Source: Nitrosomonas europaea
GTDB lineage: Bacteria > Pseudomonadota > Gammaproteobacteria > Burkholderiales > Nitrosomonadaceae
Length of the DNA: 32,000 nt
Direction of reading: 5' to 3'
NCBI RefSeq assembly: GCF_900167395.1
Contig: NZ_FUWK01000005.1
Span: forward strand, 1 to 32,000
Under the pieces are notes generated by a model. That model made no database searches and had not been told where the DNA came from. It saw only the letters and a program-made list of their open reading frames with translations. This document shows positions 2,124 to 32,000 of the stretch, one piece after another. The position numbers and the translations under genes were made by a program. Every line of letters begins with the position of its first letter. Position 1 is the stretch's first letter.

Positions 2124-3011
2124 ATGAATAAGTGCTCTCATACCACCTTGCCCTTAATACTGGGTGTATTTCTGCTAATCGCCTTTACCAATCCGGCTTA
2201 TGCACAAGTCAATGTAGTTGAAGCATTGATCGAATTCAAAAATCTGGATGGACTCGTCAAATCTCTAAAGCCAGAAGAACTGAATACCCTCGCCCGGCAG
2301 AAAACTTTGAAAGTTTTTGAAGTACACGAAGGTAGGGAGCGGCAATATAAAGTTTATCCAGCACAATCCGTTTTTGACCAAATGTTCGGTCCAAGCTGGC
2401 GAATAGCGGATGAAATCATCTTCACCTGCCAGGATGGCTACCGGCCCAGTATTCCGGTTGCAAAATTCCTCACTTACGATGCTTATCTCGCCGTTGCCAG
2501 CGCAGACAGCAAACCCTTTACACTCAGTAACGCACTCCAGAATCATGAAGTTGTAGCACTGGGACCCGCTTACCTGATATGGGATAACCTGAAATCTCCC
2601 GCTCTGCTCGATGAAGGTGCTTCCGATATGCCTTATCAGATTGCCCGTATTGAGCTGGCTTCTTTTGCGGCACGTTTTCCGGGAATGTTTCCACCAGCAG
2701 GTGCATCTGCAGAAACCAAGCGAGGGTTTCTGCATTTTCGCAAATACTGTATGGCGTGCCATACGATCAATGGCCAGGGAGGTGGCAAAGCACCCGAACT
2801 GAATTACCCGGTCAGCGTGATCGAATACTTCAAACCCGGATATCTGAAGCAATGGATCGATAACCCGGCCAGCCTACGCTACAACACCACCATGCCAGCT
2901 CTGACTGTAGCAATACCGGAACGGGAAAAGGTCATAGAAGAAATCATTGCCTATCTGACAGCCATGAGGGATGTGAAGCGCATGCGGCCTGCAGGAAACA
3001 GTAAGCAATAA
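2124..3011 (+). CDS. Secreted c-type cytochrome domain protein with an unassigned N-terminal domain of about 190 aa
   Basis: 295 aa. Signal peptide MNKCSHTTLPLILGVFLLIAFTNPAYA-QV. A single heme-binding CMACH motif sits near the C-terminus, with a downstream Met (NTTMPAL) as a plausible distal ligand. Confidence 0.8.
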   Translation: MNKCSHTTLPLILGVFLLIAFTNPAYAQVNVVEALIEFKNLDGLVKSLKPEELNTLARQKTLKVFEVHEGRERQYKVYPAQSVFDQMFGPSWRIADEIIFTCQDGYRPSIPVAKFLTYDAYLAVASADSKPFTLSNALQNHEVVALGPAYLIWDNLKSPALLDEGASDMPYQIARIELASFAARFPGMFPPAGASAETKRGFLHFRKYCMACHTINGQGGGKAPELNYPVSVIEYFKPGYLKQWIDNPASLRYNTTMPALTVAIPEREKVIEEIIAYLTAMRDVKRMRPAGNSKQ

Positions 3012-3090: not shown

Positions 3091-3792
3091 TCACTCTTTT
3101 AACCGGATATCAACTTTGCCATCCGTCACCTGGATGTGTTCAACGCCCTCGGAAAAAGATTTCCAGAAACCGGGATCCATACCAAATTCGCTGACCAGAT
3201 CGATATTTTTCAATCCACCCAGCCAGGCATTAGGAACGGGAACTCCCATGATACTGACACCCTTGAGGATGATGACGGGCTTATCGTTGCGATAAGCCAT
3301 ACCGAGACCGGCGTTCAGGCGCAGCGTTTTCCCGCCCAGTACCGGAAAATCCTCATCGAGCGGAAGGAGCAGACGTGCACTTACCAGATCATCGGCAAAA
3401 TCGATCGCCAGTTTTTGTGCAAGATCGGTATTTTTGGCCAGCAATGCGTTTATTTCCCGCTCGGTAAAGTTGACTTCACGTTTTGCCCCCTGCTCGGAAT
3501 ACGCTTGAGGTTTCAGAAAACCTTCCTCATCGATTTCACCTTTGAGATCATCATTCCGCTTTGCTGTCGGTGACGAAAATGAAAAATCGTAACCGATCGT
3601 CCGGAGCTTTTGCTCCAGCGTTTTTTCTTCCTTTTTGCTCAAAATAACCGGTTCAAAGGATGAAACAAAAACATAGGTTGTGAGCACCCAGTAAGTACCG
3701 GCCACAGTCAGCACAATCGTAGCCAGAACGATCAGCAGCACATGTGACCAGTGCAAACGAGCGTTATTACTCGTATTTCCGGTTGAATTCAT
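3091..3792 (-). CDS. Membrane-anchored hypothetical protein (single N-terminal TM helix)
   Basis: 233-aa ORF with the hydrophobic helix VLLIVLATIVLTVAGTYWVLTTYVFV followed by a soluble domain. I recognise no catalytic motif. It converges on the cytochrome gene. Confidence 0.65.
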   Translation of the reverse strand: MNSTGNTSNNARLHWSHVLLIVLATIVLTVAGTYWVLTTYVFVSSFEPVILSKKEEKTLEQKLRTIGYDFSFSSPTAKRNDDLKGEIDEEGFLKPQAYSEQGAKREVNFTEREINALLAKNTDLAQKLAIDFADDLVSARLLLPLDEDFPVLGGKTLRLNAGLGMAYRNDKPVIILKGVSIMGVPVPNAWLGGLKNIDLVSEFGMDPGFWKSFSEGVEHIQVTDGKVDIRLKE

Positions 3793-7545: not shown

Positions 7546-7604
7546 AGTGCCTGTCGGTATTATCCGTTGCAAAATCAGTCAATTGCATGAAAGGAGATGT
7601 CATT

Positions 7605-7885: not shown

Positions 7886-10252
7886 ATGAGTGCCATGGAA
7901 CAATCCCCCTCTAACCTGCCTGAACTGCCTGCCGATGTCATCGCCCTGGTGCCGATGCGTAATGTCGTGCTGTTCCCGCACGTGATCATGCCCGTTGCCG
8001 TCGGCCGCACCCGGTCGATTGCAGCGATTCAGCATACCTTGCAGTCGAAAGTACCTGTCGGCATCGTGCTGCAGAAAAACCCTTCCGTCGATGAACCTGG
8101 ACTGGATGCACTTTGCCAGATTGGGACCATTGCCAATGTCGTGCGCCATATCGCTTCCGAAGATGGCACACATCACGCTGTCTGCCTGGGAGTCGAGCGC
8201 TTCCGCATCGAAGCGCTGGTTGAAGGCTATCCCTTCCTTGCCGCACGGATCCGGCGTATTCCGGAAGCCATTCCGGATACCACACAAGTGGAAGCACTGA
8301 CATTGCAATTACGCGAACGCGCAATGGAAATTGTATCGCTGCTGCCTAGTGTACCGGCTGAACTGGCACATGCACTGCAGGCGACGCGTGCACCCTCCGA
8401 TCTGGCAGACATTACTGCCAGCCTGCTCGATACTGAAGTGGCCGAGAAGCAGAAACTGCTGGAAACCATCGATATCGAGGAACGGCTGCACAGCGTGCTG
8501 CAAATTCTGGCGCGACGCATCGAGGTCCTGCGACTTTCTCAGGAAATCGGCGAACGTACCAAAGAACAAATGGAGGATCGTGAACGCAAGTTTCTGCTGC
8601 GCGAACAACTGAGGACCATCCAGAAAGAACTTGGTGAAGATGGTGAAAATGAGCAGGAAGTCGTCAAGCTAGAGGAAGCCATCACTGCTGCTGGCATGCC
8701 GACAGATATCGAACAGCAAACACACAAGGAGTTGCAGCGCTTACAACGGATGCCCGCCGCATCGAGCGAATTTTCCATGCTGCACACCTACCTTGAATGG
8801 ATGACAGAACTGCCATGGCAACTGCCGGAAGATAAACCGATCGACCTTGATGCTGCACGTACCATTCTCGAGGCTGATCATTTTGGACTGGAACGCATCA
8901 AGCAGCGCATCATTGAATTTCTCGCCGTACAAAAGCTGAAACCGCAAGGCCGTGCACCGATCCTCTGCTTCGCCGGCCCGCCGGGCGTGGGAAAAACATC
9001 ACTCGGGCAAAGCATTGCACGCGCGCTACAGCGCCCGTTCGTCAGAGTATCGTTAGGCGGAGTCCATGACGAAGCGGAAATGCGTGGTCACCGCCGTACC
9101 TACGTGGGTGCCATGCCGGGCAATATCATCCAGGGGTTGCGCAAGGCGGGTGCACGCAACTGTGTGATGATGCTCGACGAAATCGACAAAATGACTGCCA
9201 GCGCGCATGGTGATCCAGCGGCTGCATTACTGGAAATTCTCGATCCGGAACAGAACTCGACATTCCGTGATAACTATCTGGGTGTCCCATTCGATCTGAG
9301 TCGCGTGGTATTCATCGCCACGGCCAATGTCATTGATCAGATCCCGCCACCGGTACGGGATCGCATGGAAATCATCGATCTGCCGGGTTACACCCAGGAA
9401 GAAAAACTGCAGATTGCGCTGCGTTATCTGGTGCAACGACAAAGCGAAGCCAACGGTCTGCAGACAGATCAATGCATGCTGACATCGGCAGCTTTGCAAG
9501 GCATCATTGCCAACTACACCCGTGAAGCCGGGGTGCGCCAGTTCGAACGTGAAATCGGCCGGATCATGCGTCACGCCGCCCTGCAAATTGCACAAGGCAC
9601 ACAGCAGCAGGTACAGATCGACGCTCAAAATCTGGAAGACATTCTGGGGCCAGAGAAATATGAACATGAACTGGCACTTCACACCGACCTGCCAGGTGTT
9701 GCAACCGGTCTGGCCTGGACACCGGTGGGAGGCGACATCCTGTTCATCGAGGCGACGCGTATCAATGGCAGTGGCCGCCTGATCCTGACCGGTCAACTTG
9801 GCGATGTGATGAAAGAAAGTGCACAAGCAGCGCTCACCCTGGTAAAAGCACGCGCCGAAGACTTGCACATTCCAACCTCAGTGTTCGAGGGAATCGATGT
9901 GCATTTACATGTGCCTGCCGGCGCCATCCCCAAAGACGGGCCAAGCGCAGGTGTGGCAATGTTCATTGCACTGGCTTCGCTGTTTGCCAACCGGCCGGTA
10001 CGGCACGATGTGGCCATGACCGGTGAAATCAGCCTGCGTGGGCTGGTTTTACCGGTTGGCGGCATCAAGGAAAAAATATTGGCGGCGCAGCGTGCCGGTA
10101 TTCGAACTGTACTGCTGCCAGCGCGCAACCGGAAAGATCTGCATGATGTTCCGGAAGCAACACGCACTGCCATACAGTTCGTTTTTCTGGAAACTGCCGA
10201 CAATGCTGTTCAGGCAGCTCTAGGTAAATCCGACAATCTGGAATCCGTTTGA
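7886..10252 (+). CDS. lon: ATP-dependent Lon protease (endopeptidase La)
   Basis: 788 aa. Lon N-terminal domain ([21 protein letters not shown]), Walker [10 protein letters not shown], Walker [10 protein letters not shown], and the protease domain with catalytic Ser in [11 protein letters not shown] and Lys in [10 protein letters not shown]. The start could instead be ATG 7895. Confidence 0.95.
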
Positions 10253-10260
10253 GGACTGTA

Positions 10261-10291
10261 GCCGCCTGCCAGCCAGTTGCGCGGCAGCGGC
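10261..10291 (+). terminator. GC-rich hairpin 8 nt after the lon stop (weak U-tract)
   Basis: GCCGC(c)TGCC ... GGCAGCGGC forms 9 bp with one bulge and a 12-nt loop. It is followed by AATTTGTCGC. Confidence 0.35.
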
Positions 10292-10426
10292 AATTTGTCG
10301 CATGGCTATTTGGTGAAATCCGGGTTACAGTGTGAATCACCAGGCAGATACTTTTCTTATCTGTCATATATTTGTCTGGTGCAGTTGTTATCCTTGCATT
10401 TTGAATCAATGAAAGGAGAAAGCTTT

Positions 10427-10720
10427 ATGCGAAATGAAACACAGACTACGCATTCCCACAGCAAGCATGAGCAACACTGCCAGCATGTGTACGAAACCGG
10501 ACAGTTACGGCGTGCAAAAATGCATGTCGCACGTCTGACTGGTAATTTTGACAGCAGGAAAATTCTCTCGCCGTCATTACTTCAACTGCTTGAAACCAGC
10601 ATTATTTTGGAGACAACCGACTCGAAAGTGCTTGCCTCCCGGTTAAAACGTAAACCAGCCGCAATCCGTGCTGACCTGCAGAAAATCTGCCATCTCCTTG
10701 CAGAAGAACCAAGGTTATAA
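10427..10720 (+). CDS. Small hypothetical protein with a His-rich N-terminus
   Basis: I prefer ATG 10427 because it is preceded by AAAGGAGAAAG with 5-6 nt spacing. This gives 97 aa, MRNETQTTHSHSKHEQHCQH..., with a possible helix-turn-helix-like C-terminal part. No family is recognised. Confidence 0.5.
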   Translation: MRNETQTTHSHSKHEQHCQHVYETGQLRRAKMHVARLTGNFDSRKILSPSLLQLLETSIILETTDSKVLASRLKRKPAAIRADLQKICHLLAEEPRL

Positions 10721-10878
10721 CAATATCAACCCGGGATCATTACCCGTACTCAAGAAGTTGCAATCGAACTGCCGAAGCCAGATCATTATTTCCAGCCCGG
10801 CAAAACCCATGTACCATTCTTTCATGAAGGCTGCACCACGGTCTTAAAAAGACTCCATTTCATGAAAGAACAGGAAAA

Positions 10879-11205
10879 ATGAAATATCTTACAATAGTAG
10901 TTTTATCATTGTTGATGATCCCTGCCTCAATCACGGCTGGCGACTTGTCTAATCTGCAGCAGCAAACCAACCAGGCCTACGAACAGATGAAGCAGGCTGA
11001 AAGTCAGCTCAGCAACGCCAGGAAGGATGTGCAGGTCAAGCAGGATAATTTGCGCTACCACCAGGAAAAGGCAGCTGAAACCGAGAAGGAGCTCCAGGCC
11101 GCACAGCAGGTTTTACAAAGGGCTGAAGAAAATCAGTCGGCAGCCAGGAAAAAATGGAATGAGAATTCCGAGGAGCTTTATCAGAAGTGGCACCGGAAAA
11201 AATGA
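10879..11205 (+). CDS. Small secreted coiled-coil protein (hypothetical)
   Basis: 108 aa. Signal peptide MKYLTIVVLSLLMIPASITA-GD, followed by a Gln/Glu/Lys/Ala-rich heptad-like sequence. Confidence 0.65.
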   Translation: MKYLTIVVLSLLMIPASITAGDLSNLQQQTNQAYEQMKQAESQLSNARKDVQVKQDNLRYHQEKAAETEKELQAAQQVLQRAEENQSAARKKWNENSEELYQKWHRKK

Positions 11206-11268
11206 AGTGATGAAGCCAAAACTGCCAGACATCACTGCAACATCACTGTACCTGCGCGAGTACCGTAT

Positions 11269-12570
<1,302 letters not shown>

Positions 12571-12800
12571 CTATTGATCTCTCGAAATTATTCCAAAATA
12601 AAGCACCGCACTGTGAACAGCACGGTGCATGAGTATCCTTTTTCAGCGACTGATTACCAGCCTGCTTCTTTTAAAACAGGCAGTTGACTGAATCCGATAA
12701 ACTTACACTTCCTCTGGTTGACGGGTATCAAGACTCCCCGCTTCCCTACCTCAGTACAGCCGCCCCATCTGCAGGCAAAACCGTTCTCCTCCAGCGTCGT

Positions 12801-13976
12801 TTATCCTGTAACCGGATCGATTTCCCAGTTACCATTACGGAAAACGAGTTTCCTGTCGCAACCTGTTACTTCCTGATTTTCTTCTCCCGGCAGCTCAGTC
12901 ACCACGATATGCCCTTCAGCACGTAATTGCCGAACCATTGCTGCCAGTTTCTCATCTTCCGGCTTCCATGGCGCCAGTATTCCCGAAGGATAACCATTCA
13001 TATCCGTCAGCTGCGACAACTGTTTCAAGTCGAGACTGAATCCGGTTGCCGGCCTCGCTCTGCCAAACGATTTGCCGATTTCATCATAGCGTCCTCCCAG
13101 GGCGATGGGCGCAGGACATCCCGGTGTATAAACGGCGAAAACCATACCCGTATGATAGTGGTAGCCCCGCAAATCAGCCAGATCAAACGTTATCCGGTCG
13201 ACATAAGGTTGCAGTATTCTGGCAACATGTTCCAGTTGATCCAGTGCCTCACCGATTTCCGGGAAATCCGGCAAATGCTGACGCGCACTCAGAAGCACGG
13301 TACCGTCCCCATACAGCTCCGGTAACAACAGCAAAGCATTTTGCACCGATCTGGTCAGACGTTTATTCAAGCCTGTACGTACCAGTTCCTTCAGGGAGCT
13401 AATATCCTTGGCCCACAATGCAGCATAAAGCTCCATTTCGAACTCGGGCTTGATGCCTGAATCACGAATCAGGCTGCGAAAAACCCTGATATGCCCAAGA
13501 TCGAGATGAATCGAATGAATGCCTGAAACTGACAGACACTCCAGTAACAAACACTGGATTTCAAGATCACTCTCGATACCGGAATGTCCGTACAATTCGG
13601 CACCCACCTGGAATGGCTCACGTGTGCGGGTAATTTCATCCGGTACCGTATGGACCACGCTGCTGGCATAACAAAGCCGCGTCACGCCACTGATATTCAG
13701 TAAATGAGCATCGATCCGGGCTGCCTGCGGAGTCATATCCGCGCGCAATCCCATCATTCTGCCGCTGAGCTGATCGACGACCTTGAACATACGCAGATTC
13801 ATACCGCTTCCGCTCCCGGCCAGCAAGGATTCCACATATTCCAGCAGGGGCGGCATGACAAACTGATACCCGTGGGCAAACAACATGTCCATGATAAGAC
13901 GGCGGATCTTCTCTATACGATAAGCATCACGCGGCAATACATCTTCAATATATTCAGGAAGCAGCCAGTTGCGCAT
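12801..13976 (-). CDS. hisZ: ATP phosphoribosyltransferase regulatory subunit
   Basis: 391 aa with a class-II aaRS (HisRS)-like core (MRNWLLPEYIEDVLP..., GGRYDEIG) but no anticodon-binding domain. The position next to purA and downstream of hflKC is the usual betaproteobacterial one. Confidence 0.92.
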   Translation of the reverse strand: MRNWLLPEYIEDVLPRDAYRIEKIRRLIMDMLFAHGYQFVMPPLLEYVESLLAGSGSGMNLRMFKVVDQLSGRMMGLRADMTPQAARIDAHLLNISGVTRLCYASSVVHTVPDEITRTREPFQVGAELYGHSGIESDLEIQCLLLECLSVSGIHSIHLDLGHIRVFRSLIRDSGIKPEFEMELYAALWAKDISSLKELVRTGLNKRLTRSVQNALLLLPELYGDGTVLLSARQHLPDFPEIGEALDQLEHVARILQPYVDRITFDLADLRGYHYHTGMVFAVYTPGCPAPIALGGRYDEIGKSFGRARPATGFSLDLKQLSQLTDMNGYPSGILAPWKPEDEKLAAMVRQLRAEGHIVVTELPGEENQEVTGCDRKLVFRNGNWEIDPVTG

Positions 13977-15249: not shown

Positions 15250-16439
15250 TATCTCATCTCCCGTTCACGACTACGAAAAGACTCACGCGAACGTGAGCCG
15301 ACATCTGAGGAAAATTCCTGGGATTCATTTTGTGATCTGGCCGCTGCAACTGAAGATCTCGTCGCACTGGAATCAGCCTGAATCAGCTTGTCCAGTGGCA
15401 GATAAAGCAGATTGCTCCCGCCTTTTTCCTGATCGATCAGGATTTTGCTGGTACTGGATAAAACTTGCTGGATCGTATCGAAATACATACGTTCCCGTGT
15501 GACCTCGGGTGCTTTGGCATATTCTGTCTGCACCTGCGTAAAGCGGCTGGCATCCCCCTCTGCAGCGGCAACTACCCTTTGCTTATACCCCTGAGCTTCC
15601 TCCAGCAAACGTGCGGCTCCCCCTCTTGCTCTCGGTATCACATCATTTGCATAAGCCTGGCCTTCGTTTCTTTGCCGTTCACGATCCTGACCTGCCTTGA
15701 CGGCATCATCAAAAGCGGCCTGTACCTGCTCAGGCGGCTGCGCATTCTGCATCGTTACCCGGTTGATGGAAATACCGATCTGATAACGGTCGAGAATTTC
15801 CTGCATCAGCTCGGTCGTTTTGGCTGTTACCTCTTCACGCCCTTCGTACAGGACAAAGTCCATTTTGCTGGTACCAATGACTTGCCGGATGGCTGTTTCT
15901 GCCACCTGCAAGACGGTACTTTCCGGATCACGGTTATTGAAGAGGAAATTCTCGGGACTGTTCAGAATGTACTGCACGGCAAACTGGATATCGACGATAT
16001 TTTCATCATCCGTAAGTATCAGCGATTCCTTGAGTACCTTGCTGCGAACATTATTACGATAGCCGATTTCCACCGTGCGTACCTGACCAATATTGACAGA
16101 CTCGACAGCTTCGACAGGCGAAGGAATATGCCAGCGCAATCCCGGCATGGTCGTTTCCACATGTTTACCGAAACGCAGTACCACACCGCGCTGACCTTCA
16201 TCGACAATGTAAAAACCACTTCCTATCCATGCCAGAGCAAGCAAAGCGACGATTGCTACAAACCCCCTGCCGCTGGGAAGATTAGGGCTTCCCCCGCCAG
16301 AGTCTTCATCATCGTTACCCCCTCCCTTTTTGCCGAAAATTTCACTTATTTTCTGGTTAAAGTTACGCATAATGTCTTCAAGGTCAGGAGGCCCTGAGTT
16401 GCCTCTTCTTTTTCCCCACTGCGGATCATTCAAGCCCAT
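15249..16439 (-). CDS. hflK: Protease modulator HflK (SPFH/band-7 domain)
   Basis: 396 aa. Gly-rich N-terminus, TM helix, SPFH domain and a coiled-coil C-terminus. The gene follows hflX. Confidence 0.95.
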   Translation of the reverse strand: MGLNDPQWGKRRGNSGPPDLEDIMRNFNQKISEIFGKKGGGNDDEDSGGGSPNLPSGRGFVAIVALLALAWIGSGFYIVDEGQRGVVLRFGKHVETTMPGLRWHIPSPVEAVESVNIGQVRTVEIGYRNNVRSKVLKESLILTDDENIVDIQFAVQYILNSPENFLFNNRDPESTVLQVAETAIRQVIGTSKMDFVLYEGREEVTAKTTELMQEILDRYQIGISINRVTMQNAQPPEQVQAAFDDAVKAGQDRERQRNEGQAYANDVIPRARGGAARLLEEAQGYKQRVVAAAEGDASRFTQVQTEYAKAPEVTRERMYFDTIQQVLSSTSKILIDQEKGGSNLLYLPLDKLIQADSSATRSSVAAARSQNESQEFSSDVGSRSRESFRSREREMR

Positions 16440-16444
16440 GTGAT

Positions 16445-17635
16445 TTAGTCCTTCTCATTATTTATAAAAGTGGCACGGACATTGTCGTTCATGCTTTCAG
16501 GTGTTGCTGAATGTTGCTCTAACCTCTTCAAATTCTGGTCAAACACCTCTGCCAGTGCGTCGTACAGATAACTAAAACCCGCTCCTGTCCTCGCGCTGAG
16601 ATGAATGCTTTTGATTCTACCATACTCATCACGCATGTAATTCCCGGACGGATACTGTTCGAGAAGATCAATTTTATTCAGAATCAGAATCTGCGGTATC
16701 GTATCGGCACCAATTTCTCGCAATAATTTATTGACTTCGCTGATCTGCGCATCCCGATTGGAACTGGAGGCATCGACTACATGCAGAAGCAAATCAGCTT
16801 GTATGGTTTCTTCCAGTGTGGCACGGAATGCCGCAACGAGCGTATGGGGTAATTCGCGGATAAATCCAACTGTATCGGAAATTACTATCGTCCCGCGTCC
16901 GGGAAGTGTCAGCCTCCGGGTAGTCGTGTCCAGCGTAGCGAACAACTTGTCGGCAGCATATGTATCCGTTCGTACCAGCCGATTGAACAAGGTCGATTTA
17001 CCGGCATTGGTATACCCTACTATGGAAACGGACAGGATTTCTGCACGCTTTCTCGCACGCCGCCGTACCTCACGCTGCCGTTTGAGCTTGGTCAGCTTCT
17101 CTTTCAAAAGTTTTACGCGCTTCGCCAGCAAACGACGATCCGTCTCCAGCTGCGTTTCACCCGGCCCGCGCAGACCGATACCACCCTTCTGACGTTCGAG
17201 GTGAGTCCATCCTCTCACCAGTCGTGTTGAAAGGTATTCCAGCTGGGCCAGTTCGACCTGCAGTTTACCTTCATGACTTTTGGCACGTTGCGCGAAAATA
17301 TCCAGAATCAGACTGGTACGATCTATGATGCGGCAAGCCAGCACCATGGAAAGATTTCGTTGCTGTACCGGAGACAGCTCATGGTTGAATATCACCATTG
17401 CAGCGTGTGTCTGCGCCAGAATCTGGCTGATTTCCTCTGCCTTGCCCTTGCCGATAAAGGTGGCAGGGTCAGGTTGCTTCCGCGTCCCTTCAACTACAGC
17501 GACCACCGAGAGCCGATCGCTGCGAGCAAGCTCCCGCAGCTCTTCCAGGCTTTCTTTATCTCCTTCACCAAAATCGATGTCTACTAATATCGCGGTGTTA
17601 TCAGCCACCGTTCCAGTAGCAACATCATGGCTCAT
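16445..17635 (-). CDS. hflX: Ribosome-associated GTPase HflX
   Basis: 396 aa. HflX N-terminal domain, G1 [10 protein letters not shown]3 DTVGF and G4 NKID. It overlaps the hfq 3' end by 11 nt. Confidence 0.95.
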
Positions 17636-17879
17636 CTTGCTCAGTCTGGGTGTCGGCAGGTATCGGAATTGAAATAGCTTTGGCCGGAACTATGGTGGAG
17701 ATGGCATGTTTATAAACCATCTGCGTGACAGAATTTTTCAACAGAACGACATACTGATCAAAGGAATCAATTTGACCTTGTAACTTGATGCCGTTGACCA
17801 GATAAATGGAAACCGGAATACGCTCCTTGCGCAAGATATTCAGAAAAGGATCCTGCAGTAACTGCCCTTTGACGCCCAT
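17625..17879 (-). CDS. hfq: RNA chaperone Hfq
   Basis: 84 aa. Sm motifs [39 protein letters not shown] and [10 protein letters not shown]. An RBS GGGAGGA lies upstream. Confidence 0.97.
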
Positions 17880-18213
17880 TGTTCATCCTCCCTGGTGAAT
17901 TTTTTTAGTTATCTGATAAGAATAAATACCCTTCTGGGTTGGTCGGCCGTTTCCGGCAGTATTTTTGTCATGATCCGAGAATCTGACTGCATCATCAGAT
18001 CGACAGAAAGAAATCAAAAATTCATAAAAACTCATCCCGGGTATTTTGATGTTACTAAAGTATAAGTCGCGCAAAACCATAAGTCTAACACGGTGTATCT
18101 CGCCGTCTACGCGATACAGTATTTTTGATTTACCTGAAAAAGGAAATCGCAGAAAAAACCAGAACGGTAGCCGACAGCATGAAATATCATCCTGCTTTAC
18201 TGATACAAAGCTC

Positions 18214-19572
18214 TCAGGCAGCAGAATTCTGTTTCGTATGTTCTGGAGAAGAGCTGATCACTGGCGCGGTTTCGGCCGGTAGCACACGATTACTCGGAAA
18301 CCATATCCTGAAAATGCTTCCCGCTCCAGGCTGGCTGGTAATTTCCATACTCGCCTGATGACGATTCAGAACATGCTTGACTATGGCAAGACCGAGACCG
18401 GTTCCGCCGGTTTCACGGGAACGGCTGCGATCCACCCGATAAAAACGTTCCGTCAACCGGGGAATATGATTTGGCTCGATGCCGATCCCGCTGTCCTGGA
18501 CGTAAAACAACCCTTTTCCATTTTCCACTACCCAATTCAGGGAAATTATCCCGCTCTCCGGGGTATATCGCACAGCATTACTGATCAGATTCTCAAATGC
18601 GCTGCGCAGTTCATCTTCACTGCCGAGCAACATGGCATGACTGGCAAGATTGAGAGAAATGACATGACGCCCTGCACTCAGTGACTGGGCTTCCTGGTAA
18701 AGTCCCTGCAACAGTTTGACGACATCCACCTGTTCTTCTGTCAGGTTGTTTCCGGCGTTCTCCAGCCGGGACAACGTCAGCAAATCCTCTACCAGGCGAC
18801 GCATGCGGATGGCCTGGTCGGACATCAGCCGCAGTGCATTTTTCTCCATTTCGCCGGATATTTTATTTTCTTCCAGCAGTGTTTCAAGGAACCCGCCAAT
18901 CACTGTCAGGGGTGTACGCAATTCATGCGAGACATTGGCAACGAAATCCCGCCGCATGATTTCAATTTTCTCAAAACGCGTCACATCCTGGCTGATCAGC
19001 AGTTTTTCCCTGTCACCATAAGGCACGATCTGGATGGAGAGCAGGACATCACGCAAGCGTGACTGATTGAGTAAAAAGGGTTTACTGAAATCTCCCATGT
19101 CGAGATAGGCCACGAACCTCACCTGGCGCACCATACGGGTAATGTGCTGGCCGGCATCCATTTCGAGATTGAGGCCCAGATGCCGCTCGGCGGCTGAATT
19201 GCACCACTCGATCTGATCCTTGTCACCCAGAATGACAATACCTTCCGGCAGTGCAGATGTCGCGCGCTGCAATCGTTCCAGGGAAGTATTCAATCCCAGG
19301 CGCTCCTTGTCATGACGCCGCACGAAGCGTGCCAGCCTGGCGAATACCACACCCCATAAGCCTGATCTGTCAGGTACCGTCGCGTAGGAAAGATCCGAAT
19401 GATGCAGCCATTGTTCCAGACAATACAACGTATGAATATGGTAAATGACGATCCCTAACAGAATGATGCTGTACAGGCCGAATACGATTGCAGCATTGAA
19501 CAGTATCCCCACCGGTATGGCAATGATAGTCAGCCATAAAACAGGAGCAAGGCTCAACCAGAAGGAGTTCAT
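18214..19572 (-). CDS. phoR: PhoR-type phosphate-regulon sensor histidine kinase
   Basis: 452 aa. PhoR-like double-TM N-terminus, PAS region (LPEGIVILGDKDQIEWCN), HisKA H-box FVANVSHELRTPLTVI, and HATPase N/G boxes (NLISNAVRYT, DSGIGI, GGTGLGLAIV). Confidence 0.85.
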   Translation of the reverse strand: MNSFWLSLAPVLWLTIIAIPVGILFNAAIVFGLYSIILLGIVIYHIHTLYCLEQWLHHSDLSYATVPDRSGLWGVVFARLARFVRRHDKERLGLNTSLERLQRATSALPEGIVILGDKDQIEWCNSAAERHLGLNLEMDAGQHITRMVRQVRFVAYLDMGDFSKPFLLNQSRLRDVLLSIQIVPYGDREKLLISQDVTRFEKIEIMRRDFVANVSHELRTPLTVIGGFLETLLEENKISGEMEKNALRLMSDQAIRMRRLVEDLLTLSRLENAGNNLTEEQVDVVKLLQGLYQEAQSLSAGRHVISLNLASHAMLLGSEDELRSAFENLISNAVRYTPESGIISLNWVVENGKGLFYVQDSGIGIEPNHIPRLTERFYRVDRSRSRETGGTGLGLAIVKHVLNRHQASMEITSQPGAGSIFRIWFPSNRVLPAETAPVISSSPEHTKQNSAA

Positions 19573-26077: not shown

Positions 26078-26818
26078 CTAATCTCCAACCGGGCCGCGCG
26101 CCAGATCAACCATTTTTCTCAATCTCTCGACATCGAGCACGCGCAATTCATGGCCCGTCCGCTGAATCAGCCGGTTCCTGGCAAGTTCACTCAATTCACG
26201 GGTAACGGCTTCGCGGTGGGTGCTGACAAAACACGCCAGCTCGGCATGTGTCGGGGCAGGCTTGATAATGGCCGTATTCGGAGAATCCATGTGCTGCCTT
26301 GCAAGTCTCAGCAGTTCTGCATGGATGCGATTACGCACCGCCAGCGTACTGAAATCGAAGACCCGTTCAGTCAGACGGCGCACCTGGCCTGCCAGACGCT
26401 GCATGATCGCCATGCAGAATACCGGGCTCTCATGCACCAGCCGTATGAACGCCTGGTTTGACATGACCGCCAGCAAAGAATCAGATCGGGCAACGACCGT
26501 AGCAGATCTCGGCTGACCATCGATTGCCGTCAGCTCACCGAAAAACTCCCCTTGCGATAAATCGCACAGAATCACTTCATCACCGGAATAACCGAAGTAA
26601 TGAATCCGCACACCACCTTCAAGCACAAAAAACACATTGTCACTATGATCGAGGTAACGAACGATCTCTTCTCCAGCAAGAAAATGCTGCATTTGCAGAA
26701 GCTGCGCCACCATCTCCAGATCTGAAGCGGAAAAATCCCTGAATTCTCTGATGACTGTCAGTTGAGTACCGGTTACCTCTCTGGATTGATTGTAAAAATC
26801 ATTGGCATAAGTACTCAT
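26078..26818 (-). CDS. Crp/Fnr-family transcription regulator with cNMP-binding domain
   Basis: I prefer ATG 26818, which is preceded by GGGAG at 8 nt, giving 246 aa. The phosphate-binding cassette FFGELTAIDGQPRSATVVA is present. The C-terminal HTH has recognition helix REAVTR, with the same R-E-x-x-x-R spacing as E. coli CRP RETVGR. Confidence 0.9.
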   Translation of the reverse strand: MSTYANDFYNQSREVTGTQLTVIREFRDFSASDLEMVAQLLQMQHFLAGEEIVRYLDHSDNVFFVLEGGVRIHYFGYSGDEVILCDLSQGEFFGELTAIDGQPRSATVVARSDSLLAVMSNQAFIRLVHESPVFCMAIMQRLAGQVRRLTERVFDFSTLAVRNRIHAELLRLARQHMDSPNTAIIKPAPTHAELACFVSTHREAVTRELSELARNRLIQRTGHELRVLDVERLRKMVDLARGPVGD

Positions 26819-26880
26819 ACTCACCACTCCCTATGAGGCCTGTTGCGCGAATAGCTTCGATCATACGATCCTGCCGCAAA

Positions 26881-27300
26881 TTACCAGGGGATACAGTAAA
26901 CTTGTCCGCGGAATACCAATACTGACCTGCAGTTATCATCTCCAGCATAGGCATCTGTGCTGCCGCTCCCTAATTGCAGCATCAGTTCTTTTATACTTGA
27001 ACCCGCTCCGGCTGTCATCCCTGCAAGCCCTTTACCATAAAAAACCAGATCAGCTTGTTCACCATCTTTCTTTTTGATGACAAGCACCCCCTCTGTTCTT
27101 TCAGAATCCAATTCGTTCCTGGTTAGCGTTTCCAGGTTCTTAACTGTCAGATCCTGTTTTTCATAGGATACGACCTTTACCGGAATACCCGTCTGGCTTA
27201 ATTTAAACAGGTAAGCCAGGATTATTACCAACAGTATGATATTAACAAGAAAACTGATTCTGTATCTGGTCAGTAATCCTTCCCGATCATGAGTTCCCAT
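26881..27300 (-). CDS. Small bitopic hypothetical protein (N-terminal TM anchor, ~95-aa extracytoplasmic part)
   Basis: ATG 27300 is preceded by GGGAGA. The track start, TTG 27312, lies 1 nt after the upstream TAA. The TM helix is ISFLVNIILLVIILAYLF. The C-terminus ...CRSVLVFRGQVYCIPW has two Cys residues. No family is recognised. Confidence 0.6.
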   Translation of the reverse strand: MGTHDREGLLTRYRISFLVNIILLVIILAYLFKLSQTGIPVKVVSYEKQDLTVKNLETLTRNELDSERTEGVLVIKKKDGEQADLVFYGKGLAGMTAGAGSSIKELMLQLGSGSTDAYAGDDNCRSVLVFRGQVYCIPW

Positions 27301-27313
27301 CGTATCTCCCAAG

Positions 27314-30300
27314 TTAAAAGTTCAAGGTTATTCTGGCAAACAACGTCCGTTCAGGTATATATCTGGGCAAAGCCGGCTCCGACAGATAAAGATACTGATT
27401 CCGGTAGTAGAAATGTTTATTCAGTAGATTTCTGACTTCAAAACTCAGCAATCCTTTGCGTTTGGGCAATCTGTACCCTGCAACCATATCCAGCAGAAAA
27501 AAATTGGAATCCTTCTTCTCAATCCAGCCAAGCCATGTATCTTCGTCAAATCGCGCCCATTTTACATCCTGCATGACATAAGTGCCGGTCAGCTTCGCCC
27601 AGAATCCATTCTGGTCAAAATAGCTCACACTGATCGGCGCTCTCAATGTATGAATATTCGTAGGCAAATCTGCATATCTTTCCTTTCTATCGAATTTCTC
27701 GTATTCAGGTTCGATCGCAACAACCCAGTTCGGGCGAAACGTGCCATAAACATAGCCCCGGAGTAATTGTTCTTTCTGCTTATCCCAATAATAATCCCTG
27801 TCCGACACACCCAGCTCAGGAATTACCGGCACATCCAGATCACGCTCGGATACCTCCACTCCGCCATAAACGGCATTGGCAAAATGAATATCCAGCCCGA
27901 CTGCCTTATGTCGTGATTTCGTTCCGGTCATTTCATCATAGAATTGATTAAATCCGGCGATCTGGGTCGGCTCGATTGTCGCCTGACCAATCAGATCCCG
28001 CTTCAGCGCTTCAAACCAGGCCATACGCAAACGAACATTTTTGTGGAAATCTACCTGCAGTCCAATTTTGGGATCAAATTCACTGACTTTTCGATTGATT
28101 CCTCCAGCATCATTGGAATAGGCTTGATAACTGAAACCCAGCGTGGCCATCACATTTTTGAGTATATTCAGATTCGAATACAGATACGCAACATTCTGTT
28201 CCTTATCCGCTTTGGACTTCTCACATCCCATCATCATACAAATCAGCGGTTCGGTATTTTTTCTGAAATCATTCGTCAGATTGGTCCGGTAAATACCACC
28301 ACCAGTAATCACATTCACCCGATCCTTGCGAAGAATATGTTGTGCTTCAACCTGGTAACCATGGCTGCGCTGATCCCCATAAAACGGGAAATCACTACCC
28401 AGATCTTCTATTACATCAGCATCCTGGTGCGTATAAATCGTCGAGAATAGAAAATTCTGCCGAGGTGAAATCCGGTACATCGCCCCTATACGCGCCGTAT
28501 CTTCTTCGAGATTCAAGCGCGCTACCTCGGAAAATTTCTTTGGATCAAAATCCATCAGCAAATCCCCGTGCTTCTTTTCCCGCCGGCGCAACTCTGCCTG
28601 AACATTCAAATCCGGTGTAACCGCATACTGCACGAAAGCATTATAGATATTATGCGTCTGGTCATTGTTGGGCCGGAATCCATCGGTCTGATAATGAAAC
28701 TGCCCCACACTGACCGAAGCCCGGTCATACACGCCGGACACAACGACTTCATCCCCCAGCGCACCATGATTGCCAACTACACCGGAGGCCACCAGTTGCG
28801 CCTTATTGCGCTCCATCAGTGGTGCGAATTCGTTGAACCCCGGTGCTGAGGGGCCTGTACCGGTAATGAGATTGAGGTCAGCTACCGCCATTCTGGGCTG
28901 TACCGGATTGACGTTGACTGGCTGCAGCAGTTGAGCCTGCAGCAGTTCGCTCACCCGCGCGATTTCGTGGCGCGGAACATTGGCATAAGCATCGGACAGA
29001 AACCGGTGCGCGGAATGACTGGCCGGATCAAAGCTCAGCGACTTGGCCGTTTCCATCAGAGCACGTTTTTCAAACCCGAGATTGTCATAAATCCGTGCCA
29101 GGCTGGAACCGCGCGCTGCCTGATCCTGATCCAGCAGCAGTTGCGAACGGTACACCGCACGATTATCGTTCAGCTCAATTGATTTCTGGACATCGCGCAA
29201 CGCTTCCACTGGCCGGTTCTGGGTCTGTTTCTGGATCGCATCGTACAACCAGGGAGTGGGATCGTTCGGGTCGCGTGCTTTGGCCAGATCAAACTGGGTG
29301 CCGGCCAGCGGATAGCGCTTTTCTTCGAAATAGGCTTTCCCGAGATAACTGCGGATCAGCGAATTCGCCGGATCCAGGCTGGCTGCCGTTTCGATATCGA
29401 TACGTCCGGCTTCGAGTTTATTCTCACGTATCCGGGCAATCCCGATCCCCAACCGGGGCATAGGATCAGCCTGATCGAGCACGGTCGCCCGGGCAAAAGC
29501 TACCTGCGCCCGGTGAGTATCAATCTGCAGAAGATGGGCAAAACCCAAAACGGTTTGTGTCCTGCTCAGATCAGGGTCGAGGCTGACAGCTCGTTCGGCT
29601 GACTGCAACGCATGGTCGGATTTCCCGGCAGACATCTGCAATTCTGCCAGGCGTGCCCAGGCCAGGGCATTTTGCGAATCGAGCCGGACAGCCTCCTCCG
29701 CACTGGCCAAGGCTGTTTCGATCTGAAAATTCGCTTGCTGCGCATAAGAAAGTGCCAGCTTTGCTGCAGATGAAGCCGGATTATTTCTGACAGCCTGTCC
29801 AGCCAGTGCCAGTGCTTCCTGCTTACGATTCTGTACCACGAATATCATTGCATGCAATGCCAGTGCATCACTGTTACCGGGTTCAAGCTGCTCTGTTCGT
29901 TGCAGATCCGATAAGGCTTCCTTTACCCGACCGGTGGTCAGCAACAGCTCGGAGCGAAGAATCAGAGCATCTACCGTCAATTCTTCGGCCAGCAGATGAT
30001 CCAGTTCAGCCAGTGCTTCTGCCAGCTTGCCCTGCCGATACTGTTCGATTACATGATGCACCGCAGGTGATTGCTGATTTTCATGACCTGATCGGGAGTA
30101 CAAATCAATCAGCATTGGATAGTGCAACGCCCACTGCACTGCATCGAGCGGGTGCACCATGACGGTCTTTCGGGCAGGCTGATTTTCCTGAAAAACCGCA
30201 GCCTCCTGATTTGCCAGAATCAGATTATCCTGATCACTACCAGCCTTAACCCGGCCTTCATAAACCGCGATCGTTACGCTGGGAGACGAGTCATCCTCGC

Positions 30301-30811
30301 CGCCTGCATCCACCAGAAATTCGGTTCCATCGACACTGGCATTGACCACAGGTGTTCTGATTTTGAAGGGTTTAGGCGTGCGGGTGATGATGTGCATCAC
30401 GCCATTCATTAAATCCAGCAGAGTATTCTGCTCGACATCAGGGCCTGAGATAGTAATTGCCGTTCGCTGATTCAGCCGAAGCATGCTTTCGTTACTGAGC
30501 CGGAGCGCTGCACGACTGTTGGCGCGCACCCTCACTCTGTCACCGGCACAGAATGTGCTGTTGGAAGCAGCCATGTGCCAGCCCGAATCTCCCGGCCGGT
30601 GATATTCCACCACACCCTGCAATGAAACCATCCGTGCTACCGGTGCGTTGCATACCTCCTCCGCAAAGGCAATCGAAACAGCACCAGTCGTCATGAAAAA
30701 GCACAATCCCGGCAGAGCTCTGTAAAGTAATTTCAGTGTTGCAGGAATCCACCCGGTACATTGCGCATTTTTCATAAATTTATCATTTCGCCGTTGATAA
30801 CAGACAATCAT
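27314..30811 (-). CDS. Large secreted protein: FecR-like domain + TPR array + putative C-terminal outer-membrane beta-barrel
   Basis: 1165-aa ORF; ATG 30775 is an alternative start. Signal peptide ...GLCFFMTTGAVSIAFA-EE. The FecR-like block spans about residues 57-190 (LQGVVEYH..W......FCAGDRVRVRANSRAALRLSNESMLRLNQRTAITI....FKIRTPVVNASVDGTEFLV....VYEGRVKA). At least eight TPR-like repeats, with recurring A-x-x-L-D/N-P motifs, cover about residues 240-640. The last ~470 aa are rich in Tyr/Asn/Gly/Phe with alternating hydrophobicity and end RTLFARITLNF, an OMP beta-signal with a terminal Phe. Confidence 0.85.
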   Translation of the reverse strand: MIVCYQRRNDKFMKNAQCTGWIPATLKLLYRALPGLCFFMTTGAVSIAFAEEVCNAPVARMVSLQGVVEYHRPGDSGWHMAASNSTFCAGDRVRVRANSRAALRLSNESMLRLNQRTAITISGPDVEQNTLLDLMNGVMHIITRTPKPFKIRTPVVNASVDGTEFLVDAGGEDDSSPSVTIAVYEGRVKAGSDQDNLILANQEAAVFQENQPARKTVMVHPLDAVQWALHYPMLIDLYSRSGHENQQSPAVHHVIEQYRQGKLAEALAELDHLLAEELTVDALILRSELLLTTGRVKEALSDLQRTEQLEPGNSDALALHAMIFVVQNRKQEALALAGQAVRNNPASSAAKLALSYAQQANFQIETALASAEEAVRLDSQNALAWARLAELQMSAGKSDHALQSAERAVSLDPDLSRTQTVLGFAHLLQIDTHRAQVAFARATVLDQADPMPRLGIGIARIRENKLEAGRIDIETAASLDPANSLIRSYLGKAYFEEKRYPLAGTQFDLAKARDPNDPTPWLYDAIQKQTQNRPVEALRDVQKSIELNDNRAVYRSQLLLDQDQAARGSSLARIYDNLGFEKRALMETAKSLSFDPASHSAHRFLSDAYANVPRHEIARVSELLQAQLLQPVNVNPVQPRMAVADLNLITGTGPSAPGFNEFAPLMERNKAQLVASGVVGNHGALGDEVVVSGVYDRASVSVGQFHYQTDGFRPNNDQTHNIYNAFVQYAVTPDLNVQAELRRREKKHGDLLMDFDPKKFSEVARLNLEEDTARIGAMYRISPRQNFLFSTIYTHQDADVIEDLGSDFPFYGDQRSHGYQVEAQHILRKDRVNVITGGGIYRTNLTNDFRKNTEPLICMMMGCEKSKADKEQNVAYLYSNLNILKNVMATLGFSYQAYSNDAGGINRKVSEFDPKIGLQVDFHKNVRLRMAWFEALKRDLIGQATIEPTQIAGFNQFYDEMTGTKSRHKAVGLDIHFANAVYGGVEVSERDLDVPVIPELGVSDRDYYWDKQKEQLLRGYVYGTFRPNWVVAIEPEYEKFDRKERYADLPTNIHTLRAPISVSYFDQNGFWAKLTGTYVMQDVKWARFDEDTWLGWIEKKDSNFFLLDMVAGYRLPKRKGLLSFEVRNLLNKHFYYRNQYLYLSEPALPRYIPERTLFARITLNF

Positions 30812-30886
30812 AACAAATTGCCGGAATATGGTTTCAATACATCAGCATAACATCGCTACAGATTAACCGGTAAGGTGCTGTATCGA

Positions 30887-30902
30887 CGTGATTTTTGACA
30901 CA
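30887..30902. promoter_or_regulatory. CRP-like inverted repeat CGTGA-N6-ACACA upstream of the FecR-TPR-barrel gene
   Basis: It matches TGTGA-N6-TCACA at 8 of 10 positions. It is centred about 84 nt upstream of ATG 30811, in the 140-bp spacer. By itself this is statistically weak. Confidence 0.3.
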
Positions 30903-30951
30903 GTTGCCAACAGGAAATCTGCGGGCCGGATGTGCTGTCTGCATCCGGACA

Positions 30952-32000
30952 TCATTTCGATTGTATGGATATGATCAGCTCACCCGCTTCCCGGACTGGA
31001 AACAATCGGGGTTCACGGCAATAGGTAAGCATGAATCGGGTGGGGCCATCTTCGGGGAAACGTTCATGGATCATTTCGAATCGATGCAATGCATCCACCC
31101 GGTTGCCGGTTTGACAAACGTGCAGTGCTTGCTCATACGCGGCACACAGCTGTCTCTGCGCTGCATTGCTGCCACTCTGACGAGCGACCAGTTCAAACAG
31201 GTTGACCGGTTGTGACTTTCCCGGCAGCAGAAACCGCCCGAGCGGACGCAGCAGCAGATCATTCAACCCATTTACTACTTCTTCCGATACCAGCAACCGG
31301 GTACCCAGATGCTTATTGACTCCCTGGATACGGTTGGCTGTATTGACGATATCGCCCACCGCACGGTACTCATAATGCTGTCGTGCACCAATGTTGCCTA
31401 GTACCATTTCACCAAAATGTAACCCTAGCCGGGTTGGAAGGGGCGGACGGCCGTATCCGCCCTGGTGATTGAAGCGCTCTATCGCGCTGATGATATCCAG
31501 GCAAGCCAGGCACGCCCGTTCGCGCACAAGCGGATCAGCAGAACCAGCCGCCCAGATGGCCAGCATGGCATCGCCGATCACATCGGACACTTTGCCCTGA
31601 TAACGCTCAACCGGTTCAAACAGGCACTCATAATATGCATGCATGAGTGCGGCAAGCTGGCGAGGATCCATAGCTTCAGCAAGCGCAGTATATTTTTCCG
31701 CATCTGTCGCCAGGCAGGCTCCATAGACCAGTTGCCCTTCCGTATGGATCGGGCCTGCACCACGAACCATATCCCGCACCACTGGCTCTGGCCGATGTCC
31801 ACCAAACAGCGCCTCGATCCGCCTGCGTTCCCGGTCAGCTTCAAAATACAGCAGGGTGACGATCCCGATCACACCCACCGGTAACTGCACCATCAGCGGA
31901 ATAGCCAGAGGAATCCACAATTGCCATTGTCCGAACAGCCATACACTCGCACTGCCATAAGCACAAAACGACAGGATTCCTGCCAGTGCCATTCCCAGCG
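30952..32000 (-). CDS. Membrane-anchored class III nucleotidyl (adenylate/guanylate) cyclase, 5'-truncated by the window edge
   Basis: The frame stays open to nt 32000. Two hydrophobic helices are followed by a cyclase homology domain: metal Asp residues in CLATDAEKYT and VIGDAMLAIW, transition-state residues in GDIVNTANRIQG, and GLHFGEMVLGNIG. A ~75-aa C-terminal extension follows. A CHASE2-type periplasmic sensor upstream is inferred, not seen. Confidence 0.85.
   Translation of the reverse strand, partial: LGMALAGILSFCAYGSASVWLFGQWQLWIPLAIPLMVQLPVGVIGIVTLLYFEADRERRRIEALFGGHRPEPVVRDMVRGAGPIHTEGQLVYGACLATDAEKYTALAEAMDPRQLAALMHAYYECLFEPVERYQGKVSDVIGDAMLAIWAAGSADPLVRERACLACLDIISAIERFNHQGGYGRPPLPTRLGLHFGEMVLGNIGARQHYEYRAVGDIVNTANRIQGVNKHLGTRLLVSEEVVNGLNDLLLRPLGRFLLPGKSQPVNLFELVARQSGSNAAQRQLCAAYEQALHVCQTGNRVDALHRFEMIHERFPEDGPTRFMLTYCREPRLFPVREAGELIISIQSK

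Follow-up and report, generated by a model that had tools for sequence, protein, structure and literature searches.

The 32,000-nt stretch of Nitrosomonas europaea analysed here (contig NZ_FUWK01000005.1 of assembly GCF_900167395.1, positions 1–32,000; referred to as the window) carries at its end four co-oriented minus-strand open reading frames (ORFs), encoding a class III nucleotide cyclase, a 1165-amino-acid (aa) protein that combines FecR-like, TPR and beta-barrel regions, a small anchored protein, and a Crp-family regulator. We interpret this locus, with a probability of about 0.7, as an NsrA-type signalling module leading from the outer membrane to a cyclic nucleotide, with Crp-dependent amplification of the receptor operon. 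The interpretation is carried by the domain architectures, the homology to NsrA over the full length of the 1165-aa protein, the adjacency of a CHASE2 cyclase, the enrichment of CRP boxes, and the conserved Crp residues.

A first-pass annotation of the window, made from the letters alone, had proposed that the cyclase receives a signal from the surface or periplasm, which is then read out by cAMP/cGMP-dependent transcription, and had held that no characterised pathway was wired in this way. The functional part of this proposal was well supported by synteny, the CHASE2 domain and the barrel. Its claim to novelty did not survive, as NsrA, CyaK/CyaD1/CyaD2, and Clr of Sinorhizobium meliloti form such a pathway. 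In that organism, the outer-membrane protein NsrA is needed for plant-signal-dependent synthesis of cyclic AMP (cAMP) by the CHASE2 cyclases CyaK and CyaD1/D2, with Clr as the output (PMC7529298, PMC13001267, PMC10463352, PMC5498481), and the pathway serves the autoregulation of infection. Inactivation of nsrA abolishes signal perception by CyaK, and its overexpression sensitises it (PMC7529298).

Gene content of the locus

The features of the locus, all on the minus strand except where no strand is given, are as follows.

30952–32000, minus strand: cyclase gene, C-terminal 349 codons of a 759-aa protein (ORF open at 32000)
30812–30951: spacer between the cyclase and barrel genes, 140 bp
30887–30902, minus strand: CRP-type box TGTGTCAAAAATCACG in this spacer, two mismatches to TGTGA-N6-TCACA
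27314–30811, minus strand: gene of the NsrA-like 1165-aa protein (Pfam, AlphaFold2, Foldseek, hhalign)
30245–30541, minus strand: FecR-like domain, periplasmic (PF04773)
28922–30067, minus strand: TPR/helical-repeat region, aa ~249–630 (TPR matches in Pfam, model helices 249–628)
27317–28798, minus strand: C-terminal beta-barrel, aa ~672–1165, ~22 strands (PF00593, AlphaFold2, Foldseek)
26881–27312, minus strand: small ORF (ATG at 27300 gives 139 aa)
26078–26827, minus strand: Crp-family regulator gene (cNMP_binding and HTH_Crp_2; likely start ATG 26818 gives 246 aa)

The four ORFs and the 140-bp spacer lie where the first-pass annotation had placed them. The four-gene arrangement is not a product of chance, because it recurs across genomes. 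The closest genome to the window locus is a Nitrosomonas metagenome-assembled genome (MAG; locus L008), at 86% identity. DNA beyond the window end was supplied by L001, a metagenome contig that carries an identical 1165-aa neighbour.

The 1165-aa protein and its homology to NsrA

Pfam searches placed a FecR domain at aa 91–189 (PF04773, E-value 1.7e-16), TPR families at aa ~250–560, and TonB_dep_Rec_b-barrel (PF00593) at aa 711–1129 (E-value 4.8e-11); the plug domain PF07715 gave no match in the protein at E-value ≤ 0.01. The protein opens with a signal peptide (cleavage after ...SIAFA, before EE) and ends in ...RITLNF, a C-terminus typical for outer-membrane proteins. In the AlphaFold2 (AF2) model, which had a mean predicted local distance difference test score (pLDDT) of 65 and values of 70–90 in the barrel region, a beta domain at aa 57–217 was followed by helical repeats to aa ~630 and by ~22 strands at aa 672–1164. 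The model is unreliable for the spatial arrangement of FecR, TPR and barrel parts and for aa 516–668, the segment before the barrel, which was predicted to be helical at low confidence. The best Foldseek matches of the model were the TonB-dependent transporters PqqU, FptA, FpvA, and FecA (E-value ~1e-17, TM-score ~0.55 on the target). Pfam, AF2 and Foldseek agree in assigning the C-terminal region to a barrel, and in its model the protein looks like a FecA-type barrel joined via TPRs to a FecR-type periplasmic domain, without a plug.

Two cysteines, Cys54 and Cys88, are nearly invariant in the family. Its most conserved block lies between the TPRs and the barrel, at aa ~514–655 (28847–29272; DPNDPTPW...NDNRAVYRS...LLQAQLLQP...), and could be a plug-like or partner-binding element. 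This block was modelled at very low confidence only (pLDDT 26–44). The protein databases held 3455 homologues, overwhelmingly from Nitrosomonas, Nitrosospira, and Nitrosovibrio, and many of them are publicly annotated as 'TonB-dependent receptor'.

The ORFs of several rhizobial replicons were called anew. In S. meliloti 1021 and other strains, pSymB carries a gene for a 1190–1197-aa FecR+TPR protein directly upstream of, and overlapping, the gene of a 649-aa CHASE2 cyclase; the first is annotated 'FecR domain-containing protein' or 'TonB-dependent receptor', and the second as cyaK in several records. The FecR+TPR protein was identified with NsrA because its gene neighbours the annotated cyaK and because of its size; it is presumably also the protein reported under this name by Garnerone 2018. 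It contains the same FecR and TPR domains as the window protein (Pfam), and its C-terminal region aligns to the barrel of the latter. Comparison of the window family with the rhizobial NsrA family by hhalign gave a probability of 99.7% and an E-value of 8.6e-27 over 1004 columns (66–1121 vs. 44–1208), in an alignment that runs from the FecR domain to the last barrel strands. BLASTP of the window protein against rhizobial NsrA gave an E-value of 2e-21 at 25% identity over the N-terminal 600 aa. In NsrA, residues 600–1200 make up the barrel (PMC7529298), and CyaK is the sole CHASE2 cyclase on pSymB (PMC5498481, PMC13001267). On the S. meliloti chromosome, clr, cyaD1, the FecR-domain gene SMc02177, and the gene of the periplasmic protein SMc02178 (function unknown) are neighbours (PMC5498481). 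A gene for a 'DUF5706 domain-containing protein' (181 aa, membrane-like) is divergent from nsrA–cyaK on pSymB (147–692 in locus L090, equal to 5256–5801 in L088).

The CHASE2 cyclase

The cyclase ORF is still open at base 32000, and its part in the window comprises the last transmembrane helices and the catalytic domain (Guanylate_cyc, E-value 6e-12, Pfam). On metagenome contigs with an identical 1165-aa neighbour, the full-length cyclase of 759 aa combines CHASE2 (E-value 3e-28) with Guanylate_cyc, the N-terminal anchor and the periplasmic CHASE2 domain being encoded beyond the window end.

Alignment to OaPAC indicated that the class III hallmarks are kept, namely both metal-binding Asp, the transition-state Asn, and the Arg. 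The substrate-specifying pair consists of Asp (KVSDVIGD) and Arg (YEYRAVGD; catalytic core at 31330–31590 of the window, cyclase at 7581–9857 of L001). Adenylate cyclases have Lys and Asp/Thr/Ser at these positions, and CyaK and its rhizobial relatives align with the pair Lys...Ser. An Asp/Glu...Arg pair was found in 44 of the 61 locus-linked cyclases (34 Asp...Arg, 10 Glu...Arg). Since Asp...Arg stands in place of Lys...Ser/Thr/Asp, the product of the window cyclase may not be cAMP; judged from sequence, this clade may make cyclic GMP (cGMP) or another nucleotide. An acidic residue at the first position is a hallmark of guanylate cyclases, and the CHASE2 enzyme Cya2 has the pair Glu...Gly (PMC6005667).

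Conservation across genomes

A scan of one genome per GTDB species returned 549 related stretches, from which 80 loci were kept; their ORFs were translated and then searched with the window proteins. Counting only loci with 2.5 kb or more of flank on each side, the barrel gene neighbours a CHASE2 cyclase in 37 of 43; the cyclase mostly lies directly upstream on the same strand (45/62 loci with at least 2.5 kb of upstream flank). Such cyclase–barrel loci occur in Nitrosomonadaceae, Desulfosarcina, Nitrospirae, Chromatiales, Methylococcales, and Thermodesulfobacteriota. In 17 of 40 cases the locus also held a Crp homologue, whose placement varied: the crp gene is downstream in Nitrosomonadaceae, and divergent and upstream of the cyclase in several Gammaproteobacteria. 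Synteny in other genomes, a C-terminal barrel in the 1165-aa protein and a periplasmic sensor domain in the upstream part of the cyclase had all been required by the first-pass annotation for its proposal to stand, and all were borne out.

Ten loci contain a second barrel paralogue in tandem behind a single cyclase (L015, L024, L028, L031, L037, L038, L048, L049, L051, and L068; in L015, for example, the barrel genes occupy 9926–13240 and 15352–18678), and several MAGs carry further barrel copies on other contigs. Orphan barrel paralogues with no cyclase nearby were seen in Nitrosospira (L030 8300–17109; L034 8267–16594), with a sigma-54 activator and, on the other strand, a ~770-aa TIR+TPR protein as neighbours.

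The Crp regulator and CRP boxes

The regulator matched cNMP_binding (E-value 2e-20) and HTH_Crp_2 (E-value 1e-12) in Pfam, and the solved structures that match it best are those of E. coli CAP and S. meliloti Clr. The CAP residues that bind the ribose-phosphate (E72, R82, S83) and those that read the DNA (R180, E181, R185) are kept in the window protein and in 20 of 23 linked homologues. At the positions of CAP Thr127-Ser128, the window protein has Leu-Thr, as do 20/23 linked homologues; Clr has Thr-Thr there (PMC10127613), and the E. coli CRP variant T127L has a higher DNA affinity without cAMP (PMC11445507). Leu-Thr Crp proteins may differ from CAP and Clr in ligand specificity or allostery. 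The response of CRP to cGMP is also changed by T127L, as Gorshkova reportedly found in 1995.

The box at 30887–30902 is probably the Crp operator of the barrel/small/crp unit. A TAATCT at 30865–30860, a possible −10 hexamer, lies 29.5 bp from the box centre, a spacing that would fit class II geometry. The location of the box is conserved: boxes with at most two mismatches occur in 32 of 49 cyclase–barrel spacers, 22 of them perfect, vs. 8±2.6 in shuffles. In 1.32 Mb of loci, 27 of the 35 perfect TGTGA-N6-TCACA boxes lie at most 400 bp upstream of a barrel gene, corresponding to 0.57 perfect boxes per kb vs. 0.006 per kb elsewhere, a ~90-fold difference in density. This positional enrichment across loci is the sole informative CRP-box signal; the window box alone is not significant. 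A generic scan for sigma-70 promoters and terminators gave nothing over shuffle level. Because the boxes are concentrated upstream of barrel genes, Crp-dependent feedback is implied, in which Crp with its nucleotide would activate the barrel/small/crp unit.

The small protein and the downstream ORF families

Read mechanically, the small ORF starts with a TTG 1 nt past the TAA of the barrel gene. A GGGAG Shine-Dalgarno sequence precedes the ATG at 27300, 13 nt past the barrel gene, and the resulting 139 aa equal the length called in metagenomes. The product had no match in Pfam or NCBIfam. Its features are a transmembrane anchor at the N-terminus, a beta hairpin, the motif SIKELMLQLGSGSTDAYAG and, at the C-terminus, a Cys...Cys hairpin; from its AF2 model (pLDDT 49) the secondary structure alone was used, which was consistent.

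A small ORF of at least 40 aa followed 77 of the 86 barrel genes with downstream flank, when starts from 40 bp before to 160 bp after the barrel stop were counted; among the cases listed, most starts lay ~10–30 bp after it. Most of these ORFs can be grouped into four families. Family A comprises 34 ORFs, 26 of them with a lipobox. A hydrophobic anchor at the N-terminus is shared by all 12 members of family B, to which the small protein of the window belongs. The 11 members of family C and the 7 of family D lack an export signal. Profile hidden Markov models (HMMs) of families A and B matched solely ORFs directly downstream of barrel genes (7495 background ORFs), and a family-B HMM built without the window protein recovered it at an E-value of 4.9e-11. 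A single family uniting A and B was also considered, and the relation was not supported (hhalign E-value 0.12). Neither family A nor family B was found in the rhizobial nsrA loci, and a sequence search with the small protein returned merely 3–7 clusters in public databases.

Between the window and its closest genome, aa identity is 43% for the small protein vs. 86% for the cyclase, 86% for the barrel protein, and 94% for Crp. Non-synonymous divergence (dN) amounts to 0.52 for the small gene vs. ~0.07 for the genes of the cyclase and the barrel protein and 0.03 for crp; the ratio of dN to synonymous divergence (dN/dS) is 0.26 for the small gene. The low identity, high dN and dN/dS of 0.26 therefore indicate a gene that is real but very fast-changing, or one that has been exchanged. 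The possibility of a meaningless orphan ORF was ruled out by this dN/dS together with the leave-out HMM match. The small gene product had earlier been described as a ~140-aa N-terminally anchored protein; the anchor is indeed present, but the protein belongs to a position-specific, fast-evolving family and is not a generic bitopic protein.

In the tandem loci checked (e.g., L015, L024, L028, L031), a small ORF of a different family lies behind each barrel copy; in L015, family B follows the first copy and family A comes next. The small-protein profile also matched nine stretches of P0127, a repetitive Gly/Ser/Thr-rich protein of 3272 aa, at an E-value of 9e-17. The matched segment overlaps the conserved LQLGSGS motif, and the match is probably compositional.

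Proposed mechanism and alternative explanations

In the mechanism that we propose, the 1165-aa protein would be held in the outer membrane by its 22-strand barrel, with the FecR-like and TPR domains reaching into the periplasm. Upon an external or envelope cue, these periplasmic domains would act on the CHASE2 domain of the adjacent inner-membrane cyclase, which would then make a 3',5'-cyclic nucleotide. The adjacent Crp would bind the nucleotide and boxes of the TGTGA-N6-TCACA type, including the degenerate one before the barrel gene, and the barrel/small/crp unit would thereby come under positive feedback. The small anchored protein would be a clade-specific, fast-diverging periplasmic partner of the barrel protein. 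The direction in which the signal flows is suggested by analogy with the genetics of S. meliloti, and we infer the contact between the FecR/TPR domains and CHASE2, the nucleotide made, and the role of the small protein.

Several points weigh against this reading. The identity of the 1165-aa protein to NsrA is just 19–25%. The FecR/TPR–CHASE2 contact is a postulate, in S. meliloti too. The pair of adenylate cyclases (Lys plus Asp/Thr/Ser, as in CyaK) was not found in the window cyclase, and barrel paralogues without a cyclase nearby exist at loci L030, L034, L054, and L058. The box of the window is degenerate, with two mismatches and with three in its closest relative (L008), and the number of boxes in the whole window at two-mismatch stringency was not above chance. 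Finally, CRP boxes upstream of barrel genes also fit the barrel gene as a mere output.

This last point leads to an alternative in which the barrel protein would be a Crp-switched TonB-dependent-like channel or transporter, and the cyclase would sense alone via CHASE2. It accords with the CRP boxes directly upstream of the barrel genes, with the public annotation of many homologues as 'TonB-dependent receptor', and with the match of the barrel to PF00593 and to structures of TonB-dependent transporters. We nevertheless consider it unlikely: it leaves a periplasmic FecR+TPR module of ~600 aa without a transport role in a protein without a plug match, the barrel gene is tightly adjacent to a CHASE2 cyclase across phyla, and the effects of nsrA inactivation and overexpression in S. 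meliloti (PMC7529298) argue against it, while the status of a Crp target is compatible with positive feedback on the receptor. The downstream ORFs bear on another alternative, which we judge quite improbable, namely that the barrel protein exports or displays the small protein, after the manner of Slam/type XI secretion or of TPR-porins like PgaA and BcsC, the cyclase and Crp serving just for regulation. The combination of TPRs with a barrel, the small ORF behind 77 of 86 barrel genes, often with a lipobox or N-terminal anchor, and the very fast evolution of the small protein, as is often seen in surface proteins, would all suit such a role. The barrel, however, is of the 22-strand TonB-dependent-transporter type, with no DUF560/Slam match and only a weak NCBIfam match to PgaA that is confined to the TPR region; families C and D lack an export signal; rhizobial nsrA loci signal without such ORFs (PMC7529298); and export leaves the FecR domain and the CHASE2 linkage unexplained.

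The coupling of small lipoproteins or anchored partners to an outer-membrane barrel could also be read as an Rcs-like sensor of envelope integrity, in which the small protein monitors the outer membrane or periplasm via the barrel and damage is reported to the cyclase. The S. meliloti 'signal 1', the basic protein uL2 found in many cell extracts (PMC7529298), is readable as a cue of lysis or damage. Against this, there was no homology to Rcs components, and the hypervariability of the small proteins is unexpected for a housekeeping sensor, so that we give this explanation very little credence. The alternatives are not mutually exclusive with feedback on the receptor. Beyond the NsrA-type module itself, a tentative and rather doubtful extension can be formulated, by which the non-rhizobial NsrA-like systems would be a widespread, polymorphic family in which every barrel has its own rapidly diversifying small envelope partner (co-receptor, plug, or displayed specificity factor), and whose Asp/Glu...Arg cyclases produce cGMP or another non-cAMP nucleotide that is read by the Leu-Thr Crp. 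If true, this would amount to a pathway from the surface to cGMP that amplifies itself by feedback, in ammonia oxidisers and other Proteobacteria.

Implications

The wiring itself is already known; what the clade adds is the Asp/Glu...Arg pair of the cyclase, the Leu-Thr motif of Crp, and the hypervariable small proteins. The NsrA–CyaK–Clr route has so far been studied in the rhizobium–legume setting only, and the same wiring is common elsewhere, occurring among sulfate reducers, methanotrophs and free-living ammonia oxidisers, frequently as several paralogues or tandem copies. CHASE2, a sensor domain without a known ligand, gains a candidate general partner in the periplasmic FecR/TPR domains of an outer-membrane protein. 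Which nucleotide the clade signals with is directly testable, as the cyclase pair and the Crp motif both depart from the cAMP prototypes. The small, fast-evolving proteins coupled to these receptors constitute a previously unnoticed set. In nitrifiers, an NsrA-type module could sense neighbours, lysis products, or surfaces.

Neighbouring genes

The remaining genes of the window are housekeeping genes (gshA/B, proB, phoR-like, hflX/K/C, hisS-like, purA, lon). In agreement with the earlier statement, the window lacks an extracytoplasmic function (ECF) sigma factor, an anti-sigma factor, and any further TonB-type receptor. No sigma-70 r2/r4 match was obtained in the window ORFs or in the 10-kb flanks of L001. 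An ORF of 794 aa (4833–7217, minus strand) and the neighbouring ORFs at 2124–3011 (plus strand, 295 aa) and 3091–3792 (minus strand, 233 aa) had no Pfam match at E-value ≤ 1e-4. Upstream of the cyclase and beyond the window, positions 1–7252 of L001 hold a small HAO_bd-domain gene, a PEMT/DUF1295 gene, a transposase (Transposase_31), HigB/HTH and MazE/PemK toxin–antitoxin pairs, HipA, and a pilin gene; a variable stretch rich in mobile elements thus adjoins the cluster.

Comparison with known systems

Classical FecA/FecR/FecI cell-surface signalling shares with the window a FecR-type periplasmic domain, a FecA-like 22-strand barrel, and the logic of a relay from the outer to the inner membrane. 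It was ruled out for this locus, which has no ECF sigma factor, anti-sigma N-domain, plug, or N-terminal signalling domain. The FecR domain of the window follows a cleavable signal peptide and is fused to TPRs and barrel, unlike that of an inner-membrane anti-sigma factor, and its inner-membrane partner would be the cyclase. This contrast, with FecR on the barrel protein and no sigma factor, had been drawn correctly in the first-pass annotation. With TonB-dependent transporters the protein has the 22-strand barrel in common (PF00593, AF2, Foldseek) and not the plug PF07715; the 14-strand DUF560 barrel of Slam/type XI systems gave no Pfam match, the barrel being of the 22-strand type.

Pairs of FecR and CHASE2 proteins occur in other settings. 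In Campylobacterota, a cluster of a CHASE2 adenylate cyclase, a phosphodiesterase, a FecR-domain protein of the outer membrane, and a TPR protein has been proposed to act as a single pathway (PMC9239204). By description, it resembles the window in joining a CHASE2 cyclase to a FecR-domain outer-membrane protein and TPRs; there, however, the TPRs have a gene of their own and the cluster includes a phosphodiesterase, whereas the window unites FecR, TPR and barrel in one polypeptide, has no phosphodiesterase, and has an adjacent Crp. The 'BiofilmReg' operon of Burkholderia encodes a LysM-FecR protein and a CHASE2 histidine kinase (PMC5192318), and thus likewise places a periplasmic FecR-domain protein beside a CHASE2 sensor, but its output is a histidine kinase with a response regulator, and its FecR protein is small, with LysM and no barrel. 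In view of these two systems, the FecR–CHASE2 partnership seems to be general.

For the cyclase and the regulatory circuit, different relatives were found. Synechocystis Cya2 (PDB 2W01), among the best solved matches of the window cyclase (E-value 5e-14), is likewise a class III cyclase with CHASE2 in which an acidic residue takes the place of the adenylate-cyclase Lys; its pair is Glu...Gly (PMC6005667), as opposed to Asp...Arg in the window. The cGMP system RC1_3785-gcyB-gcyC-cgrA of Rhodospirillum centenum (PMC4681086, PMC10187061), compared by gene clustering, box and feed-forward loop, resembles the window in grouping genes for cyclase subunits with one for a Crp homologue. Its operon is preceded by a perfect TGTGA-N6-TCACA box and forms a feed-forward loop with cGMP as the nucleotide, and the feedback predicted for the window can be likened to that of the gcyB-gcyC-cgrA operon (PMC4681086). 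CgrA has an RT motif, in contrast to RS in the window Crp.

The closest counterpart remains the nsrA–cyaK locus of S. meliloti. Like NsrA, the window protein has ~1200 aa, a signal peptide, a FecR domain, a TPR array, and a C-terminal barrel, and in both loci the gene abuts that of a CHASE2 class III cyclase. The cyclase gene comes first in the window and second on pSymB, where nsrA precedes cyaK, and the crp gene is part of the same cluster in the window, unlike in the nsrA–cyaK prototype. The cyclase pair (Asp...Arg vs. Lys...Ser in CyaK) and the Crp motif (Leu-Thr vs. Thr-Thr in Clr; PMC10127613) differ as well, and the small-ORF families behind the barrel gene are a trait of the window clade only, with none in nsrA–cyaK loci. 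The hosts, finally, are an ammonia oxidiser here and a plant symbiont in the case of S. meliloti.

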